From an uncultured Bacteroidota bacterium (GTDB lineage Bacteria; Bacteroidota; Ignavibacteria; UBA10030; UBA6906), in contig CAWEKI010000008.1 of the NCBI GenBank assembly GCA_963809695.1, positions 249,739 to 313,738 of the forward strand: 64,000 bases of DNA, written 5' to 3'. Numbering within the stretch: the stretch's first letter is position 1; every line of letters starts with the position of its first letter. The translations under genes and the position numbers were made by a program. Shown here one piece after another: positions 376-60,334 of this stretch. The notes beneath the pieces are model-generated. The model saw only the letters and a list, made by a program, of their open reading frames with translations. It did no database searches and was not told the origin of the DNA.

Positions 376-1128
376 ATGTTTTCCAGGACCATCCCATGGC
401 TGTCGGCGGCGCTCGTCGTGGTATTCGCTTCCGCAACCTATGCCCAGACCAAATACTCCACCATTCGGTCCGTGCATTTCGATGTGCGGTACATGCAAGC
501 TGTGCCGGAAGCTGAGGCTCAACGGGTGTCGGATCTTCTGCAATCGGACTACGACAGTCTCAAGAACCAGCTCGGGCTGGACGTAAGGGCGAAGCTCGAG
601 GTGCGGCTGTACGATTCGCCCGGGCGGTACCATTCAGAAATCAATATGGGGAGGGAGGTGCTGCCGGCAATGTACGTCCATGGCATTCTTCACGCGCTTG
701 AGCCGTTTCCCCCCGAAGGTTTGGACAAAGCCCTGCGCTATCAGCTTGCGAGAGTCTTCCTGGAACAGACTGCGCAGCATGCCTGCCCGATTTGGCTCCG
801 TGAAGCCTTTGCCATCCATCACTCGGGCAGAATGCTGGATCTTTCCCCACCCGGGTCGGTCGTCGTTACATCGTTTTCCGATCTGAGTCAGGACCTTGAG
901 GAAGCCACAAATCCGGTCGAGCGCAACGACGTGGATTACGTTCTTGGACGCACGATGCAATTCTTTATTGAACGATACGGGGCGCAAAAGGCCTTTGGTG
1001 TGTTCAAAGGATTTGAGGGATCGCTCGCAATTGAGAAAGTCTTCAAGAAAGTCTTCGGAGAGGAATTCCAGGATATCGAGAAGGCATGGTCGAAGTCCGT
1101 CGCAGTCAAGCCGCGCAAACCTAAGTGA
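376..1128 (+). CDS. Secreted protein with degenerate peptidase MA-like (zincin) domain
   Basis: Signal peptide; RBS AGGAG; PIWLREAFA resembles PxWxxEG of peptidase MA-like, but the HExxH position reads RYQLAR. Confidence 0.55.
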
Positions 1129-2084
1129 CCCGGGGAGGCCCTTTGCGGGTGTTGATGTTGTTCCTTGACGGCGTTGGAATTGGGAAGCGCGACCCTGGCG
1201 TTAACGCGTTGATGTCGGCGCGCCTTCCCACTCTGCGCACAATTCTCGGAGGAGAGCTTCCCACGCTCGGCCGGCGTATGGTAGCAGGGTCACAGGCCAT
1301 TGCTCTTCCGCTGGATGCAACGCTCGGAGTTGCCGGCCTTCCGCAGAGCGGCACAGGCCAGACGGCCCTTTTTGCCGGAGTGAATGCCGCCCGTGTTGCA
1401 GGTAAGCACTTTGGCCCCTATCCGTATTCCACGCTCAGGCCGATTATAGAGCGCAGGAACATCTTCAGGCGTTTGCGGGACTCCGGGTACACGGCATGCT
1501 TTGCGAATGCATTCCCGAAAAGATTCTTTGACTACATGAAGCTGCACGGGTCTCGCCTTTCGGTCACGGCCCTTTCCTGCACGGTGACCGGAATTCCGTT
1601 GTTGCGCGGCGCTGACCTCCTTGCCGGGCGAGCTATTTCGGCGGACATTACCAACGAAGGGTGGAAGCATCTCGGGTATCCGGAGATCGGGCCCGTGGAG
1701 CCGGCAGAAGCCGGACGGCGCCTCGCGAAGATTTCCGCCGGACATAGTTTTGTCCTTTTTGAGTACTGGAAGACAGATTATGCGGGGCATTCGCGGAACA
1801 TGGAAGAGGCGATTCGGGTCCTGGAGCGGTTCGACGCAATGCTGGGAGGAGTACTCGATTCTCTTGACTCTGTGCGGACCCTGCTTGTCATCACAAGCGA
1901 CCATGGAAATATCGAGGACATGTCCGTGAAGACACACACGCGGCATCCTGTGCCCTTGATCCTGTACGGGCATAAGCACAGAGAGATCGCCGCGCTGCTT
2001 CAGGAGAAGTCTCACCCATCGCTGCCGCATCTTACTCCTGCCATCATGAAGATTCTCACCGAAAGCCGGCCGAGGCATTCGTGA
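1125..2084 (+). CDS. Alkaline-phosphatase-superfamily metalloenzyme (cofactor-independent phosphoglycerate mutase-like)
   Basis: [33 protein letters not shown] metal-binding motifs. Confidence 0.85.
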
Positions 2085-2111
2085 GGGGACGTGTTTCCCG
2101 GCTCTGCTCCC

Positions 2112-2133
2112 GCCAGGCTTATGCCTGGCATTT
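2112..2133 (+). terminator. Possible weak terminator hairpin after the metalloenzyme gene
   Basis: GCCAGGC-TTAT-GCCTGGC perfect 7-bp stem followed by only ATTT. Confidence 0.3.
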
Positions 2134-2176
2134 GCCACGCTCTTGCCCCGCATCGGGAATTTTTAAGCACACCTCC

Positions 2177-2201
2177 TCGTAAATCCGCCCGTCCCACAGT
2201 A
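2177..2201 (+). promoter_or_regulatory. Putative alternative-sigma promoter/operator upstream of comEC (copy 1)
   Basis: TCGTAAATCCGCCCGTCCCACAGTA; 19/25 identical, ungapped, to 57483-57507; followed by AGGAGG and ATG 2225. Confidence 0.55.
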
Positions 2202-2224
2202 GTAATAGGTAGGAGGAAGGGACG

Positions 2225-4645
2225 ATGCGGTGCGTGAACCATCATTCTCTGCCCGCCTTCAAAATGGGCGTGCTTCTGTGTGCGGGAATTCTCGCGGGCA
2301 GCAGACTTCCGGCTTCAGGCATCTGCCTCGCGCTGCTGGTCGCGCTGTTCGCCTTCGTCTCATTCCTTCTCTTTTTCTTCCTGGTTTTTCATCCCGGTTG
2401 TTCGAAATGGATCCTTACGCTGCTGGCCGCACTCATCTGCTTCCTGGGAGGAGCAGCCAAGATCGCTTCGGATCGTGGGCGGTCTGTCACCTTGCCCGAC
2501 TCTCTTTCCCGTCAGACGCTGGTTGTGGGGTGGATTCAGGAAGCGGCGTCCGTCGTCAATGGCCGGGTCCGGCTGGCAGTGCGGTCGCAGGCCCTCGTGC
2601 GGAATGGAAACCAGAGCCCCTTCCGGGCAAACCTGCTGGTCACGTTGATCCCGTCCGCGCATGACTCCGGATCTCTTCGCCTTGAGTACGGCATGACGAT
2701 TCTTCTGCACGGTGCACTAGAGCCCCCAACGGAAGAACGCAACCCCGGTGAATTCAGCCCGCGCGAGTATTACGAGGCAAACGGGGTATCGCTTTTGATG
2801 ACCGTTCGGGGAGCAGAACGGGTGATCGTGCTCGACAGTGGCGGCGGCTCCTGGCTCATGCGGGCCCTGATTATTCCCGTCCGCCGCGGGATGCTTGCAT
2901 TGATCGACAGCACTGTCGGCGGAGAAGAAGGCGAATTTCTGAAAGGGTTGATGATCGGAGATCGCAACGGGATTTCCCAGGCAACACGGCAGGCATTCGT
3001 CAACTCCGGCGTTGCACACGTTCTGGCAGTGTCTGGTTCGAATGTCGCCGTCGTCGCGGGGATCTTCATGCTTCTGTTCGAACTGTTCAGACTTCCCGGC
3101 AGGATGCGCACGATAGCGGTGCTGGCCGGGCTCCTGGCCTATATGGTCCTGACGGGCAACCAGCCGCCGGTGGTCCGTGCTACGATCATGGCGTTTGTCT
3201 TTTTTCTTGCCAGGCTGTTTCAGCTCAAGAGCAACCCCTACAATGCCATGGGAGTGGCAGTACTCATCGTTCTGGGGATCGATGCGCGGCAGATGTTCGA
3301 CATTGGATTCCAGCTGTCCTTTGGCGCGGTGCTCTCCATCATCTATTTCTACCCGAAGGCGAATGCCTGGATCTCTCTGCTGCCTGCCAATGCCTGGTGG
3401 CAACACGCCATCGTCTGGCTCTCGCGTGTCTGTGCCGTTTCACTCGTTGCGACGTTGGGAACTCTCCCGCTTACCGCGGTTTCTTTCGGAAGGGTGTCTG
3501 TCATTGGAATCGCAGCGAACATTATTGTGATCCCCTCGGTCGAACTGAGCGTGGTGTTGGGCTTTGCCACCGCTTGCGCAAGCCTTGGCAGCCAGTGGGT
3601 GGCAGAGACCTACGCGGCGGTGAACGGTCTCTTACTCACCTGGACCTTGGGGACAATCAAAGCCGCGGGCAACATGTCGTTCGCCTACATTGATACAACA
3701 ACATTCGCTCCGATCGACTCGCTGCCGTTCTATGTCGCCCTCTTTCTCGCGTTTAACCACGCGGGCCGGTCGCTGGTCCACGGTACAATCGCACTCCTTC
3801 TGGCGCTGAATCTTGCGGTGTTTGGCCCTCGTGGCGCCGCCTCAATGATGGGGCGGGGCCTGATGAGGGTGAGCTTTATTGACGTTGGACAGGGGGATGC
3901 TATCCTGGCCGAAATGCCGGAGGGGAAGGCGGTCCTCGTTGACGCCGGACCACGGTCATGGCAGTTCGACGCAGGGGAGAAAATTGTGACCCCGTTTTTA
4001 AAACGCCGCGGGATAACCACGATTGACCTGCTCGTGATCTCGCACGGACACAACGATCACGCCGGTGGTGTGGCGAGCGTGTTGCAGAACTTCCGGGTGA
4101 AACGCGTGGCTGCACTTGGCGGGCTGCCTGCCGCGTTGACCGCCTTGAAAAATTCACGGATGTGTCCCGCCCAATGGTGCGATTCGGTCCATGCCGGGAC
4201 GTTCCTCATGGACTCTTCCAATGCGCGCTTCTATGCCTTCTATCCGTTGGACGTGCGCACTCATGCGGCTGCTGATACCGCGTCGGACAACCGGTGCATC
4301 GTGTTCAAACTGCAGTACGGGGCCGTGTCATTTCTCTTTACGGGCGACGCCGACGCTTCGGCAGAAGCGGAACTCGTTGAGGCCTACGGCACGATGCTCC
4401 GGTCGAGTGTGCTCAAGGCGGGCCATCATGGCAGCAACACAAGCAGTACGGAACGGTTCCTGGAGGCTGTCGGCCCGTCAGCAGTGGTCATCTCTGTTGG
4501 GAGGAACAACAAATTCCATCACCCCTCACCCCGGGTGGTCGAGCGAATCACGGCCAGATGCGGATCACCCGCAAGAACCGACGAGGAAGGTGCGGTCATG
4601 TACGACACCGATGGGATCACGGTTTGGAGGTTCAACTGGCGGTGA
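2225..4645 (+). CDS. comEC: DNA internalization competence protein ComEC/Rec2
   Basis: NPGEF, GVAHVLAVSGSN competence-domain motif, GFQLSF, C-terminal MBL domain (DVGQGDA, SHGHNDHAGG, LKAGHHGS, FHHPSP). Confidence 0.95.
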   Translation: MRCVNHHSLPAFKMGVLLCAGILAGSRLPASGICLALLVALFAFVSFLLFFFLVFHPGCSKWILTLLAALICFLGGAAKIASDRGRSVTLPDSLSRQTLVVGWIQEAASVVNGRVRLAVRSQALVRNGNQSPFRANLLVTLIPSAHDSGSLRLEYGMTILLHGALEPPTEERNPGEFSPREYYEANGVSLLMTVRGAERVIVLDSGGGSWLMRALIIPVRRGMLALIDSTVGGEEGEFLKGLMIGDRNGISQATRQAFVNSGVAHVLAVSGSNVAVVAGIFMLLFELFRLPGRMRTIAVLAGLLAYMVLTGNQPPVVRATIMAFVFFLARLFQLKSNPYNAMGVAVLIVLGIDARQMFDIGFQLSFGAVLSIIYFYPKANAWISLLPANAWWQHAIVWLSRVCAVSLVATLGTLPLTAVSFGRVSVIGIAANIIVIPSVELSVVLGFATACASLGSQWVAETYAAVNGLLLTWTLGTIKAAGNMSFAYIDTTTFAPIDSLPFYVALFLAFNHAGRSLVHGTIALLLALNLAVFGPRGAASMMGRGLMRVSFIDVGQGDAILAEMPEGKAVLVDAGPRSWQFDAGEKIVTPFLKRRGITTIDLLVISHGHNDHAGGVASVLQNFRVKRVAALGGLPAALTALKNSRMCPAQWCDSVHAGTFLMDSSNARFYAFYPLDVRTHAAADTASDNRCIVFKLQYGAVSFLFTGDADASAEAELVEAYGTMLRSSVLKAGHHGSNTSSTERFLEAVGPSAVVISVGRNNKFHHPSPRVVERITARCGSPARTDEEGAVMYDTDGITVWRFNWR

Positions 4646-56280: not shown

Positions 56281-57183
56281 CTACTCCTTCTGGCTGTACT
56301 CTTCGTACGTTTTCAGATGGGCGGGGTCGATGTTCGCAAGCGTGTTGTAGACCGACTTATCCGGATTCTTCACAAAGAGGTCGGCGAGCTCCATGTACTT
56401 CGTGTCGAAGAACGCCTTGATCACCTGGTTTCTCGGGTCTGAGAGTCGTTTGATCTTCCCGATGATCTCGATAGCCTGAATAATGTTGTTGTATGCCTTC
56501 TCCGGCGCGAAGGCTAAAGAGTCGAGGCCCGTGAAGTGATATCTCCAGGACGCTGCGCGCACATGCTCGTATGCCGGAGAGAGGAGCTCGTTGATGAGTT
56601 GAAGGCGGCTATACCCGCTCGTGGTCTGCTGCCATCCCGGGTCTCCGCTGGACCGGCCAAAGTTCGCGATGTCAGCGGCTTTCTGAAACATCGGGGTCCC
56701 GGAGAGCTTTTCGAACGTGTCGGAATCGTACCCTACGACCAGGTACATGTAGAAGTCAAGAAAGCTGGTCAGATCATTGTAAGAATATGCGTTATGATTG
56801 ATTGGTCTCCCTTTGATGTAGGTGAATTGCCACGAATCGTCCATCAGACGCAAGACAACGCTGCTCTTTTTGGAGCCGTAGATAGGTCTCTGGCTTCCCA
56901 CAAAAACCTGCGCTAAATACTTGTTATCTCCCTGAACCCTCTGGACAAAAATGTCCAGGGTGCATTTCACTTTGTCCGGGATGTTCTCCGCACCCCACTG
57001 GTAATTGTTCACATACTCCCTGATGTCAGAAGCCAGGTCGCGCAACTGATCTTTGTTGGTTGTCGACACAGCCTCGTAATTGACGTTCACGGTGCAGTCC
57101 ACCCGTTGAGCCGAAAGCTGGGCACTGACAAAAAACATGAGCGCTGTCAGCGAAATCAAGATGACCGTGGATTTTCCTGGCAT
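56281..57183 (-). CDS. DUF4835-family protein (T9SS-associated PorD-like)
   Basis: Signal; C.VNVN, VGSQRPIY.S, D..W.F.Y, LTSFLDFY.Y...GYD.DTF...GT, FF.TK..E, DP.H...Y. Confidence 0.8.
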   Translation of the reverse strand: MPGKSTVILISLTALMFFVSAQLSAQRVDCTVNVNYEAVSTTNKDQLRDLASDIREYVNNYQWGAENIPDKVKCTLDIFVQRVQGDNKYLAQVFVGSQRPIYGSKKSSVVLRLMDDSWQFTYIKGRPINHNAYSYNDLTSFLDFYMYLVVGYDSDTFEKLSGTPMFQKAADIANFGRSSGDPGWQQTTSGYSRLQLINELLSPAYEHVRAASWRYHFTGLDSLAFAPEKAYNNIIQAIEIIGKIKRLSDPRNQVIKAFFDTKYMELADLFVKNPDKSVYNTLANIDPAHLKTYEEYSQKE

Positions 57184-57238: not shown

Positions 57239-57267
57239 AATATATTACTTTTGCCTGAACTGGTCAA
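57239..57267 (-). promoter_or_regulatory. sigma70 promoter for DUF4835 gene
   Basis: Minus strand TTGACC-N17-TATATT. Confidence 0.65.
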
Positions 57268-57482
57268 GGAAGGAGGACGATTATGTGGCCAAGTGTATCA
57301 TAAATATCGGATAACGAATTATGCCTGTTGGAGTTACGGTGGTCCGCGCGCGAGATTGGCGGGATATGCGTGGATGATTCCTGGACCTCCTCATGATGCT
57401 GTCCTGACACCGCTTTGATGCTTGCCGGAGGTTGATGCCAGCCTCCTCGCTTCATCAATGCCAGGAAAATCTTCGACCCCCT

Positions 57483-57507
57483 TCGTAAATTTGCCCTCCC
57501 CGCTGTA
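57483..57507 (+). promoter_or_regulatory. Putative alternative-sigma promoter/operator (copy 2, shared with comEC)
   Basis: TCGTAAATTTGCCCTCCCCGCTGTA; 19/25 identical to 2177-2201; followed by AGGAGG. Confidence 0.55.
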
Positions 57508-57524
57508 TATAAGAAAGGAGGGAT

Positions 57525-58355
57525 GTGGCCAACTCGATGGGAAGACACGTTTTATCGGCACTCTTGCTCATCTGTTTACCGGCCGAGGCCGCGTTCGAAC
57601 ACACTCCGCGCGGTGGTCGGGCTGTTGGATTGGGAGGGGCCACGGTTTCGGTCGAAGGAGATCTCTGGGCAGCCTTCATCAACCCATCCTGCCTCTCAGC
57701 AACGCATGGAACCACTGTGGCCGCGGAATATCTCCCGGGGTTCTTCGGAATGTCGGAGCTCAAGCGGGGAGCGATCTCACTCAGCAGCACGGTTCCCATT
57801 GGCACACTCGCGCTCTCGATGTCGGGATTTGGCTTCAGCCTGTATCGGGAGGTGAGCGTGGGACTCGCCGTGGCCCGTGCATTGAACGAACGAGCTGTCC
57901 TGGGGATCGGCATCAACTTCTATGCGCTGACGATCCAGGGGTACGGCAGTGACCAGACGGTTGGGCTGGATTTCGGCGTGCTGGTTCACATCACCCGGGG
58001 AATCTCTTACGGCTTTGCCCTGGACAATCTGAACCGGCCAACGATAGGAAGCGAAAAGGAGGCTCTTCCTCAGACGATGCGGATGGGGATCAGCGTGCGG
58101 CCGCTCCCGAATGCACTTGTCGCGCTCAGTGGAGAGAAAGATAGCCATCACCCTTTTGGACTCGCCATCGGATTGGAATATTTCCTTGAAGATGTAGTAA
58201 CGCTTCGTCTCGGAGCCGGGAATGATCCCTCGAATCTCGCCGTCGGAATTGGCATACGGACATCGCTGCTCTGCATGGACTACGCATACACCATGCATCC
58301 GGATCTTGGCGGGACGCATTGTATCTCAGTGTCCTTTGTCCTTCCCTGGCCATGA
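57525..58355 (+). CDS. PorV/FadL-like outer-membrane beta-barrel protein
   Basis: Signal peptide; GGRAVGLGGA and NP motifs; alternating beta strands; LRLG, DYAY..HPDLG; start may be ATG 57537. Confidence 0.65.
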   Translation: MANSMGRHVLSALLLICLPAEAAFEHTPRGGRAVGLGGATVSVEGDLWAAFINPSCLSATHGTTVAAEYLPGFFGMSELKRGAISLSSTVPIGTLALSMSGFGFSLYREVSVGLAVARALNERAVLGIGINFYALTIQGYGSDQTVGLDFGVLVHITRGISYGFALDNLNRPTIGSEKEALPQTMRMGISVRPLPNALVALSGEKDSHHPFGLAIGLEYFLEDVVTLRLGAGNDPSNLAVGIGIRTSLLCMDYAYTMHPDLGGTHCISVSFVLPWP

Positions 58356-60334
58356 CGCTCTTCGACTGTCGGCGGATTCCGGCCCTCGTGCCCGGGTTGG
58401 CGGCTTGCTTCGGCAGCCTGGCGTTGGCGCAAGACCAGGTTCCGGACACCGTCTTGTTTGGAGTCCCGGCAGAGCGTTTCTTCGAGCTTATTGATGACGA
58501 GGAGGCGTCTTCGAACGTTGCCGAGACGCTCGCATGGCTTCATGAGAACCCGATCGACCTGAACAGCGCGCAGCGGGAGGACCTCCTGCTCATTCCGGGG
58601 GTGACGGGCGAAGATGCAGACGCGATTCTGCGCGCCCGCGAACGCGAGGGACAATTTGCGTCAGTGGAGGCAATCCAATGCATCCCCGGGGGAAAAGAGC
58701 TGCTTGCAGGAATTCGCCCGTATCTCTTCGTCCAACACACGGACGCTGGCAACGCCGGGAACCGGATTCCTGCTGCCATCGTCTCTTGGCGCTTGTCCGG
58801 TCTTTTACCCGGGGCGGCAACCCCTTCCGATCCCGACATGCTCGGGAGCCTCACCAGATCACTCTCACGCGTCGCTTTAAGACTCTCTGAACATGTCAAG
58901 GCCGGCGTTCTCTTCGAGAAGGATGCGGGGGAGCGAGTACGCGATGGGTTTCTCTCGGGTTACTTCTCGTTTCATGGCAACGGGCTGATCGAACAGGTCG
59001 TTATTGGAGATTTTACCGCGGAAGCCGGGCAGGGGCTGGTCCTCTGGCGTGGGGCTGATGGCGGCAGAAATGGGGATCTGGTTGGTGGGATCCGCAAGTC
59101 CGGCGCTCGATTGGTCCCGTATCACCTGGCCGATGAAGCCCATTATCTGCGGGGTGGGGCGGTCGCTTTGAAGAGCAAGTTCTCGGCGGTTACTGTGAGG
59201 TGCTTGCTCTTGGTGTCACGAACACCGCTTGCTGCAAGCGTCAATGACCAGGGTGAGGTGACAAGCTTTTATTCCAGCGGCCTTTACAGAACGGCTGCGG
59301 AGATGGAAAAACGAAGCCGCGTGCATGAATTCCTTGCGGGAACTCGTTTCGAATGCGGTGTCCGGGGGAAAGGTACCATCGGCCTCACCTATTACCGTTC
59401 TGTATTCGATCGGGGAGTGAAGCCAGGTTCGCACTTTGGATTTACAGGGGAGAAGTCCGAAGTTGCAGGTGGAGATTTCAATATCACGCTAGGGGGTGCT
59501 GCGCTCTTTGGAGAAATCGCTCGGTCGGTTGAAGGAGGAACGGCCTGGACAGCAGGCGCGGTGATGCCTCTCGATTCTACGGCAAGGGTAAGCATCTCGT
59601 ACAGGGACTATTCAATGCATTTCAACAATCCCCACGCACGCGCCTACGGAGTGCAGGCAAATACAACCAACGAGCGCGGCATCGCCATCGGTTGGTCAGT
59701 GCGTCTGGCCCGGGCAATTGTACTTCATGGCTACGCCGATCAATGCAAGATACCGGGGAGCACCTACACCAGCTTGCTGCCCCACACTGCGAACGATTTC
59801 CTGGTCGAGGTTACCGCGCTGCCGATCCCAGATATGCGCTTCTCTCTGGCTCTCCGTTTGCGCAACTCGGAAATCATGCAGGCGGGCCCGGGGTCTCCTT
59901 CAAGTCCTTCAAGTGTTCAGGGGAATCGAGACAGGAAGAGTGCAAGATTCGCTGCCCTGATGGAAATGTCCTCCCATCTTGAGGCGAAGACAAGAATCGA
60001 GCACGTGGAATCCCGATTGTCCATGTCGAGCCGGGTGGACGAAGGGAACATGGCGTCCCAGACATTCTCCTTTGACGCCACGGGAATGGCGTGCGAGTGT
60101 GGCGTGACATTCTTCGAAGCGGACTCATACGATGCACGTCTCTATGATTATGAAGGGAACGTACGCGGATTCGTGCCCAGCCCGCCCTTGTACGGCAGAG
60201 GATCCCGGTGGCATGTGTTGTTCTCCTGGTCGTTGCCTGTCTCCATGCGCCTTGCGGGAAAATATGCTGTGACGTTGCGGGAAAAGAACCCGGTGGCGCG
60301 GGAACTTGTGATACAGGCGGAACTGCGCTTCTAG
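58352..60334 (+). CDS. Helix-hairpin-helix (ComEA-like) domain fused to a large outer-membrane beta-barrel
   Basis: NPIDLNSA..EDLLLIPGV....A.AI...RE..G.F.SVE HhH motif; EKDAGE, GQGLVLW; C-terminal IQAELRF beta-signal. Confidence 0.85.
   Translation: MTLFDCRRIPALVPGLAACFGSLALAQDQVPDTVLFGVPAERFFELIDDEEASSNVAETLAWLHENPIDLNSAQREDLLLIPGVTGEDADAILRAREREGQFASVEAIQCIPGGKELLAGIRPYLFVQHTDAGNAGNRIPAAIVSWRLSGLLPGAATPSDPDMLGSLTRSLSRVALRLSEHVKAGVLFEKDAGERVRDGFLSGYFSFHGNGLIEQVVIGDFTAEAGQGLVLWRGADGGRNGDLVGGIRKSGARLVPYHLADEAHYLRGGAVALKSKFSAVTVRCLLLVSRTPLAASVNDQGEVTSFYSSGLYRTAAEMEKRSRVHEFLAGTRFECGVRGKGTIGLTYYRSVFDRGVKPGSHFGFTGEKSEVAGGDFNITLGGAALFGEIARSVEGGTAWTAGAVMPLDSTARVSISYRDYSMHFNNPHARAYGVQANTTNERGIAIGWSVRLARAIVLHGYADQCKIPGSTYTSLLPHTANDFLVEVTALPIPDMRFSLALRLRNSEIMQAGPGSPSSPSSVQGNRDRKSARFAALMEMSSHLEAKTRIEHVESRLSMSSRVDEGNMASQTFSFDATGMACECGVTFFEADSYDARLYDYEGNVRGFVPSPPLYGRGSRWHVLFSWSLPVSMRLAGKYAVTLREKNPVARELVIQAELRF

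Follow-up and report, generated by a model that had tools for sequence, protein, structure and literature searches.

The window analysed here is a stretch of 64,000 nucleotides (nt) from the genome of an uncultured soil and wetland bacterium (assembly G000; 4.48 Mb, 12 contigs, 98.6% complete), located at G000:C8:249739-313738. Two copies of a 25-nt motif occur in it, one before the competence gene comEC and one before an operon that encodes an outer-membrane barrel and a protein with a helix-hairpin-helix (HhH) domain. We propose that this motif is the core of a promoter read by a sigma factor of the extracytoplasmic function (ECF) type, and that it connects genes for DNA uptake and recombination across the genome.

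The comEC gene (2225..4645, + strand) encodes 806 amino acids (aa) with DUF4131, Competence, and metallo-beta-lactamase domains (Pfam PF03772, 1.2e-58). The first motif copy (2177..2201, +) has a two-block position weight matrix (PWM) score of 27.8 and a counterpart before comEC in the related genome G001. It is composed of a -35-like TCGTAAA (2177-2183), a C-rich spacer, and a -10-like AGTAGTA (2198-2204), with which the element extends past position 2201. An A/T tract that resembles an UP element (2158..2167, +) precedes it; the corresponding region, -20 to -10 of the motif, is also A/T-rich in the 21 sites on which the PWM was trained. The putative transcription start of comEC (2208..2211, +), placed at about motif position 34 from leaderless sites elsewhere in the genome, falls at an AGGAGG (2211-2216).

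The second copy (57483..57507, +) has a PWM score of 45.6, with TCGTAAA at 57483-57489 as its -35-like part and TGTATAT at 57504-57510 as its -10-like part, and it also follows an A/T tract (57464..57473, +). Its putative transcription start (57514..57517, +), likewise extrapolated from the leaderless sites, coincides with the first base of AGGAGG (57516-57521). The operon begins with the gene for a small PorV/PorQ-type beta-barrel of the outer membrane (276 aa; 57525..58355, +; the start is perhaps the ATG at 57537), which is followed by an HhH-barrel protein of 660 aa counted from its ATG (58352..60334, +; the open reading frame (ORF) opens at 58319). The sole housekeeping-type match near this copy, TTGACC-N17-TATATT (57239..57267, - strand), belongs to a divergent DUF4835 gene (56281-57183) and provides an internal contrast to the motif. 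It is kept in most genomes of the order, which indicates that the lineage uses canonical sigma-70 promoters.

A first-pass annotation, made from the letters of the window, had paired the two copies as a shared promoter of a candidate competence regulon. Both 25-mers are found at the coordinates it gave, on the + strand, and they agree at 19/25 positions without gaps. When both upstream regions were shuffled, the best-matching 25-mers agreed at no more than 17 positions, and 19 or more was reached in 0/200 shuffles. Its description of the surroundings was accurate as well: AGGAGG begins 9-10 nt past each site, GGAA with an A/T tract precedes each site (2155-2167 and 57464-57473), and TTGnnn-N16-18-TAnnnT is not found on the + strand of either upstream region. 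A search allowing up to three mismatches recovered no third copy within the window.

Across the whole genome, CGTAAA and TGTA occur 18 times at a spacing of 14 nt, whereas none of the other spacers between 8 and 21 nt is found more than five times (range 0-5). The PWM, for which 21 sites of G000 served as the training set, was scanned as two blocks. The 5' part of its profile comprises an A-then-T tract from -20 to -10, a C-rich block, and T1-C2-G3-(T/G)4-A5-A6-A7; the 3' part comprises a C-biased spacer, G20, and T22-G23-T24-A25-w-T27-A28 (w being A or T), followed by cATATA and a G-rich stretch. At a score of at least 18 there were 44 raw matches, versus 1 in the reversed sequence, and at a score of at least 12 there were 64 versus 10. 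Merging of shifted versions left 38, 33, and 26 distinct sites at minimum scores of 12, 15, and 20, respectively; the spacer was exact in 29 of the 38. The longest-open-frame measure of intergenic position was uninformative, because downstream frames run across the sites.

At six sites in G000, an ATG exactly 9 nt past the GTA opens an ORF of 73-564 aa, and G001 has two further sites with the ATG at this distance. Judging from the six, transcription probably starts about 9 nt after the GTA, near motif position 34, which would imply leaderless mRNAs. The motif has the layout GTAA-n15-(T/C)GT, i.e., the AA (-35) and GT (-10) signature of ECF promoters. The claim of a shared promoter outside the housekeeping type is upheld by the rigid spacer and by this ECF-like layout, both unlike the nearby TTGACC-N17-TATATT. 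For the ECF promoters of Myxococcus xanthus DdvS, the form is GTAA-n16-CGT, in which AA and GT are the key bases (PMC6061681); the spacer of our motif is one base shorter.

The gene assigned to each site was the first same-strand ORF of at least 50-60 aa, which was scanned with Pfam or NCBIfam. Besides comEC and the HhH operon, the motif precedes comM (PF01078, 1e-101), recA (PF00154, 3e-137; this site was absent from the PWM training set), an operon of a phosphoglucomutase/phosphomannomutase (PGM/PMM) gene and dprA (PF02481, 3.8e-75 for dprA), and a gene for a 194-aa DprA-like protein (PF02481, 2.9e-6, below cut-off) that is followed by a UvrD-like helicase gene. For comF, there is a weak site 60 nt upstream in G000 (score 8.6) and a strict-pattern site in G001. 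With comM, recA, PGM-dprA, the DprA-like gene, and, weakly, comF added to the two original members, the set takes the shape of the competence regulon that had been proposed. The position of dprA, directly behind the PGM/PMM gene with the motif before the latter (G000:C9:563469-566200; also in G001), makes for an unexpected operon partner.

The targets that belong to the envelope are the PorV-like barrel/HhH operon, a protein with a lamin-tail domain (LTD) and CHU_C that is assigned to the type IX secretion system (T9SS), a MauE/DoxX-HlyD fusion, DUF2851, and a small outer-membrane protein barrel. A further group consists of small dispersed genes: four 23S_rRNA_IVP four-helix-bundle genes, two GIY-YIG genes, three to four Y1_Tnp genes, and one ORF6N gene. 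When all genomic copies of these families were located with tblastn, a site within 300 nt was present at 4/11 four-helix-bundle, 2/4 GIY-YIG, and 4/6 Y1_Tnp copies. The other targets, some of which are probably false positives, include GT4, GH2, a disulphide isomerase, and proteins of 146, 269, and 409 aa without assigned function.

The two proteins of the barrel/HhH operon occur together: tblastn covered 22 loci of relatives, the barrel was found in 21, and the HhH gene was adjacent in 21/21. The small barrel matches the NCBIfam model PorV_fam (3.5e-16, below cut-off) and has weak Pfam matches to TraF_2 and PorP_SprF. The 660-aa HhH protein has a match to HHH_3 in Pfam (2.4e-7), matches the NCBIfam comEA models below cut-off, and ends in LRF. 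Its AlphaFold model (mean predicted local distance difference test (pLDDT) 82.7, predicted template-modelling score (pTM) 0.80) has helices over residues 40-124 and strands over residues 142-659, and according to this model the protein joins an N-terminal HhH domain of the ComEA type to a large beta-barrel. The best PDB matches in Foldseek were outer-membrane barrels of 22-24 strands (BtuB, FhuE, ushers, and MtrB) at template-modelling (TM) scores of 0.35-0.45, values that indicate fold class only. Look-alikes in the ESM Atlas are from Bacteroidota clusters, and a locus search with the HhH-barrel protein among genome contigs found no relative. With ComM, this type of search returned 80 loci, the nearest of which, at 59-66% identity, carry Ignavibacteria/Chlorobiota labels and give a rough placement of the lineage.

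In 31 genomes, 250-nt regions before recA, comM, the DprA-like gene, and the barrel/HhH operon were searched with the regular expression TCGnAA-N16-GTA. It matched 22/80 regions on the forward strand and 0/80 on the reverse strand; the background, 104 matches on both strands of G000, corresponds to about 0.003 per region. The recA sites lie 41-51 nt before the ATG in G000, G001, G007, G008, G009, and G014, which represent five genera, and 90 nt before it in G004. The fixed spacing in five genera argues for orthologous conservation and not for insertion. Counterparts of the barrel/HhH operon have matches in G001, G007, and G017, and near matches were seen by eye in G009 and G014.

G001, which belongs to the same genus (g1) as G000 (73% identity in the comEC comparison) and keeps the comEC motif, also has sites before the orthologues of comF, the DprA-like gene, DUF2851, PGM, LTD, MauE-HlyD, and a four-helix-bundle gene. 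In G017, from another genus, the DprA-like gene and the barrel/HhH operon are preceded by sites, as is a homologue of the 269-aa protein. The strict pattern TCGNAAA-N14-TGTANTA is genus-specific, with 12, 9, 9, and 3 matches in G000, G001, G017, and G008, respectively, and 0-2 elsewhere. The loose pattern TCGNAAA-N15-GTANNA is noisy, with about 4-15 chance matches per genome.

The candidate sigma factor was found among the annotated ORFs beside two motif sites on contig C4, outside the window. Its ORF (G000:C4:38945-39601) is 219 aa long and the protein is probably 180 aa from Met40; it matches Sigma70_r4 (2.6e-12), weakly Sigma70_ECF, and TIGR02937 over residues 63-212 with 57.2 bits against a cut-off of 42.9. 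None of the NCBIfam equivalogs for ComX/SigH-type factors scored above cut-off, and phmmer searches of PDB sequences with the sigma and with the TPR-CHAT protein encoded nearby returned generic ECF and TPR matches only. The sigma ORF is preceded at a distance of 233 nt by a variant site (ACAAAAAA...TTGTATTACAAT), and a strong site overlaps the 3' end of the ORF, before the genes for a 270-aa protein and the TPR-CHAT protein. The motif is upstream or at the 3' end of the sigma gene in G000, G009, G017, and G028, and by coordinates also in G016, G042, and G043.

Orthologues of this sigma (E <=1e-37, 35-46% identity) were found among the 31 genomes only in G007, G008, G009, G014, G016, G017, and G028; the remaining genomes have paralogue-level matches only (E >1e-9). 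The upstream regions that match the regular expression follow this distribution: 15/24 in sigma-bearing genomes and 0/38 in those without the sigma and with a completeness of at least 90%. In genomes without the sigma, the same genes keep housekeeping-type promoters. In a survey of 54 genomes of the family that are at least 90% complete and represent 22 genera, the sigma is present in 22/54 genomes and 10/22 genera. The loose pattern had 237 matches versus 139 for control patterns in the 22 sigma-bearing genomes, and 220 versus 235 in the 32 others (one-sided Mann-Whitney p 0.003, related genomes being non-independent). The genomes of this family show the candidate regulon in the course of being wired and unwired.

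The only sigma orthologue outside the family is in G028 (G028:C70:761-1285; 46% identity) and contains an in-frame TAA. This copy keeps the 3'-end motif and the anti-sigma-like gene; it may be decaying, mis-assembled, or transferred.

The gene order of sigma, anti-sigma-like protein, and secreted protein was the same in 8/8 loci examined. The anti-sigma-like ORFs are 253-318 aa long and have a conserved N-terminus and one hydrophobic helix; in G000, the protein has 270 aa, and its C-terminal part is TPR/YfiO-like. The TPR-CHAT protein is at least 879 aa long and has a signal-peptide-like start. A complex of sigma residues 56-219 with anti-sigma residues 1-85 was modelled and scored 0.76, versus 0.01 for the best of three controls. 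The pass mark of this score was reached by 58/80 solved complexes and 2/110 mismatched pairs, counts that hold roughly because the alignments used here were our own. At least 80% of contacts are shared between the runs, the pLDDT of the partner is at least 71, and the contacts are on the sigma-2 and sigma-4 parts. Since solved sigma/anti-sigma complexes exist, the pass may reflect likeness and is not proof; the 270-aa protein is predicted from this model to be an anti-sigma that binds the C4 sigma. The suggestion of an ECF or alternative sigma thus has a concrete candidate, a divergent ECF sigma with a predicted anti-sigma, with the motif at its own locus, and with occurrence alongside the motif in the genomes compared.

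From these comparisons of sequences we judge it likely that the motif forms the core of a promoter of the ECF type (group 4 of the sigma-70 family) that serves a DNA-uptake and recombination regulon, and that this promoter is read by the C4 sigma. The promoter would consist of an A/T tract, a C-rich block, a -35-like TCG(T/G)AAA, a 14-nt C-rich spacer, and a -10-like TGTAwTA. The lineage-specific ECF sigma at G000:C4:38945-39601 would read it, and a co-transcribed single-pass anti-sigma would hold the sigma at the membrane, with a secreted TPR-CHAT protein encoded alongside. By analogy with DdvA, a signal sensed outside the cytoplasm may free the sigma, possibly via the CHAT protease. The freed sigma would turn on comEC, comF, comM, PGM-dprA, recA, and the DprA-like/UvrD-like pair; it would also turn on the PorV-like/HhH-barrel operon, the LTD protein, DUF2851, and the MauE-HlyD fusion, together with the small GIY-YIG, Y1-transposase-like, four-helix-bundle, and ORF6N genes. 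A DNA-uptake and recombination set driven by a sigma would work like the competence regulons of Firmicutes that depend on an alternative sigma, with a switch made of an ECF sigma and its anti-sigma. The label "competence" is taken from the gene content, from which we infer that cells of this lineage may actually be transformed.

Several observations weigh against this reading. The comEC upstream regions were read in 19 genomes, and the motif is present in 2 (G000 and G001). In the 17 other genomes, comEC abuts, overlaps, or closely trails a gene for a PF01676 metalloenzyme; only in genus g1 are the two genes separated by a 140-nt spacer, and this spacer holds the motif (window 1125-2224). The restriction of the motif-bearing spacer to g1 suggests that the promoter was gained between formerly co-transcribed genes. 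The expectation that the motif would be conserved before orthologues held for the HhH operon, in several genera, and failed for comEC, where conservation is confined to the genus. Motif and sigma also do not coincide everywhere. In the incomplete sigma-lacking genomes, 7/18 regions match, all seven in G001, G002, G004, and G011; these four genomes are 61-87% complete and have the motif in 7/8 regions, and no sigma orthologue was found in them, although the sigma gene may be unassembled. G049-G051 (genus g17) have an excess of pattern matches without a sigma match, and the Pfam Sigma70_r2 scan of the genome does not detect the candidate sigma.

The remaining objections concern the membership of the regulon. 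About half of the sites are before genes without a known role in transformation (GIY-YIG, Y1_Tnp, four-helix-bundle, ORF6N, GT4, GH2, and others), and the comEC, HhH operon, comM, and DprA-like sites were part of the PWM training and are hence not independent discoveries. Start codons are uncertain, because genes were called from ORFs only. In G000, the motif is absent upstream of ssb, which has a TTGACA-type promoter, and of radC, and it is absent from the small ComEA-like gene; both secretin/T2SSE/pilin clusters (C3:76-96 kb and C7:371-385 kb) have neither a match to the regular expression nor a PWM site. The genome scan for DNA-uptake genes that the first-pass annotation had called for thus found comM, dprA, and, weakly, comF, and it did not find ssb, radC, or the pilus and secretin genes. 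The absence of ssb, radC, and pilus genes from the regulon is unlike most described competence regulons. A search for sequencing runs that contain this DNA returned 24 DNA runs and 0 RNA runs.

The same promoter and the same sigma could have another role, as a response to DNA damage, phage, or foreign DNA, or in the use of DNA as food; recA, helicases, nuclease-like genes, and the uptake channel would then be induced for repair, defence, or nutrition. We consider such a role unlikely. In its favour, many of the targets are nuclease- or transposase-like or without known role (GIY-YIG, Y1_Tnp, ORF6N, bAvd-like four-helix bundles, and, behind one target, an EndoIII-like gene), the regulon does not extend to pilus genes, ssb, or radC, and the closest sensor architecture, DdvS/DdvA, controls a phage-defence island (PMC11506125). 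Against it, comEC, comF, dprA, comM, and recA form the canonical transformation set, and the first four have no established role beyond DNA uptake and processing. Riemerella anatipestifer depends for its transformation on exactly ComEC, ComF, DprA, RecA, and an HhH protein out of such a set (PMC8459023), and the SOS boxes described for Bacteroidetes, GGA-N5-TCC and CTAA-N5-TTAG, differ from the motif (PMC8565304). A LexA/SOS operator was considered as a candidate in its own right and rejected: the motif resembles neither of these boxes, only its -10 half forms a short palindrome, and that only in genus g1; with the exception of recA, the targets are uptake genes, in a scan that did not look for polymerase or uvr genes.

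Two other explanations concern the motif itself. TCGnAAA could be an activator site at -35 through which the housekeeping sigma is brought to a weak -10, TGTAwTA, with the C4 sigma merely one of the targets; control would then resemble that by ComK or Sxy/CRP-S. TGTAAT is one position apart from TATAAT, the UP-element-like A/T tract is typical of strong housekeeping promoters, and the motif was found within 500 nt upstream of none (0/14) of the Sigma70_r2-positive genes of G000. However, the upstream element is one asymmetric heptamer, neither a dyad nor a direct repeat, its spacing to the -10 is as rigid as the 29 exact sites indicate, and the motif carries the AA/GT signature of ECF promoters and co-occurs with one ECF sigma that has the motif at its own locus. 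A G at the would-be -11 is also incompatible with the usual housekeeping -10, and we regard control by an activator as quite improbable. The conserved part could also be a repressor operator, given that positions 22-30 read TGTA-w-TACA, a 4-1-4 palindrome, in most G000 sites, or a mobile cassette with small selfish genes, in keeping with the share of four-helix-bundle, GIY-YIG, and Y1_Tnp copies that carry it; its presence before comEC and the HhH operon would then be due to chance. We give this very little credence, as the TACA half varies in other genera (GTAGTAA, GTATGAA, GTAACGA) whereas TCGnAA and GTA are kept, the flanks beyond the motif are dissimilar between copies, and the motif keeps its distance of 41-51 nt to recA in six genomes.

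Promoter recognition by the C4 sigma, the reading that we prefer, can be set beside several known systems. Sxy/TfoX with CRP (at CRP-S sites) and ComK likewise use one cis element to tie together uptake and processing genes, including comM, dprA, and comF; they differ in being activators that work with the housekeeping sigma, in their dyad-symmetric sites, and in the inclusion of type IV pilus genes. The ComX element of Firmicutes is the cin-box, whereas the element here is TCGnAAA-N14-TGTA. In Firmicutes, the regulons of streptococcal ComX/SigX and of SigH (Staphylococcus, Lactobacillus sakei; PMC3364868) share with our candidate regulon a dedicated alternative sigma, a single shared promoter element, and comEC, comF, dprA, and recA among the genes turned on. 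In contrast to these, the sigma described here is of the ECF type and is accompanied by a predicted membrane anti-sigma and by a TPR-CHAT protein; the gene set leaves out ssb, radC, and the genes for a pilus or pseudopilus, and the lineage (Bacteroidota/Ignavibacteria/Chlorobi) is diderm.

The closest architecture is that of DdvS/DdvA in M. xanthus, with a different regulon. Both systems, the one here being putative, have an ECF sigma, a transmembrane anti-sigma, a TPR-CHAT sensor, and an autoregulated locus, and their promoters are of the same type (PMC6061681, PMC11506125). The periplasmic part of DdvA is TPR-CHAT, and the DdvS regulon is a CBASS/CRISPR defence island (PMC11506125), whereas the regulon here contains DNA-uptake genes, the CHAT protein is separate and secreted, and the outer part of the anti-sigma is short and TPR/YfiO-like. 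No DdvS or DdvA chain was among the PDB sequences that phmmer listed at E values of up to 0.01.

Transformation of R. anatipestifer needs, besides ComEC, ComF, DprA, and RecA, HhH, outer-membrane, and surface proteins beyond the classical pilus machinery (PMC8459023). The same functional classes are represented in the regulon described here, a likeness that for the accessory proteins is one of description only. The HhH protein of R. anatipestifer is predicted to be periplasmic, whereas here the HhH domain is fused to a large outer-membrane barrel, and the parts of that paper covered mention no regulator or shared promoter (PMC8459023). Among publications on Bacteroidota, Ignavibacteria, and Chlorobi, represented mostly by titles and abstracts, we found no description of a competence regulator, a competence promoter, or an ECF-controlled competence regulon. 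The genetic screen in R. anatipestifer called the uptake machinery of the group "unique", and largely unknown (PMC8459023).

It is possible, although we hold this with considerable doubt, that the regulon outlines a four-part, pilus-independent DNA-uptake machine of the Bacteroidota/Ignavibacteria branch under the control of an ECF sigma. In this machine, a T9SS-exported lamin-tail surface protein would capture DNA; the HhH-fused barrel of at least 22 strands and the PorV/PorQ-like barrel would pass it across the outer membrane; ComEC and ComF would import it; and DprA, the DprA-like protein with the UvrD-like helicase, ComM, and RecA would integrate it. The TPR-CHAT protease might act as the switch by attacking the anti-sigma and so releasing the ECF sigma, and the co-induced GIY-YIG, Y1, and four-helix-bundle genes could be domesticated elements that police or process incoming DNA. 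With a candidate sigma, anti-sigma, and sensor, both the sensing that governs competence and a pilus-free crossing of the outer membrane by DNA become directly testable, and the HhH-barrel, the PorV-like barrel, the LTD protein, DUF2851, and the DprA-like/UvrD pair are new candidate uptake proteins.

Some of the motif sites in G000 have unusual surroundings. The site at G000:C10:398539 (+), with a score of 26.3, has no ORF of at least 60 aa within 150 nt; purine-rich imperfect repeats lie 3' of it, and a non-coding RNA is possibly made from the same promoter. The site at G000:C9:126157 (+), one of the top ten, is followed only by a 65-aa ORF that begins with TTG, and the nearest clear gene beyond it, for a PEMT/ICMT-like methyltransferase, begins 416 nt away; in its flanks, the site is similar to the one at C9:202050. 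A pair of motifs 90 nt apart (G000:C10:10748 and 10838, +) precedes a single GIY-YIG gene. One four-helix-bundle (23S_rRNA_IVP-like) gene is located right behind comM (G000:C8:407978, +) and another behind the gene for the 146-aa target (C9:152629), so that genes of this type are also second genes in operons of the regulon. The acidic targets at C9:152038 (146 aa) and C6:476379 (269 aa) have a conserved central block in common. The 269-aa protein, whose homologue is also a target in G017, is encoded ahead of an EndoIII-like HhH-GPD gene.

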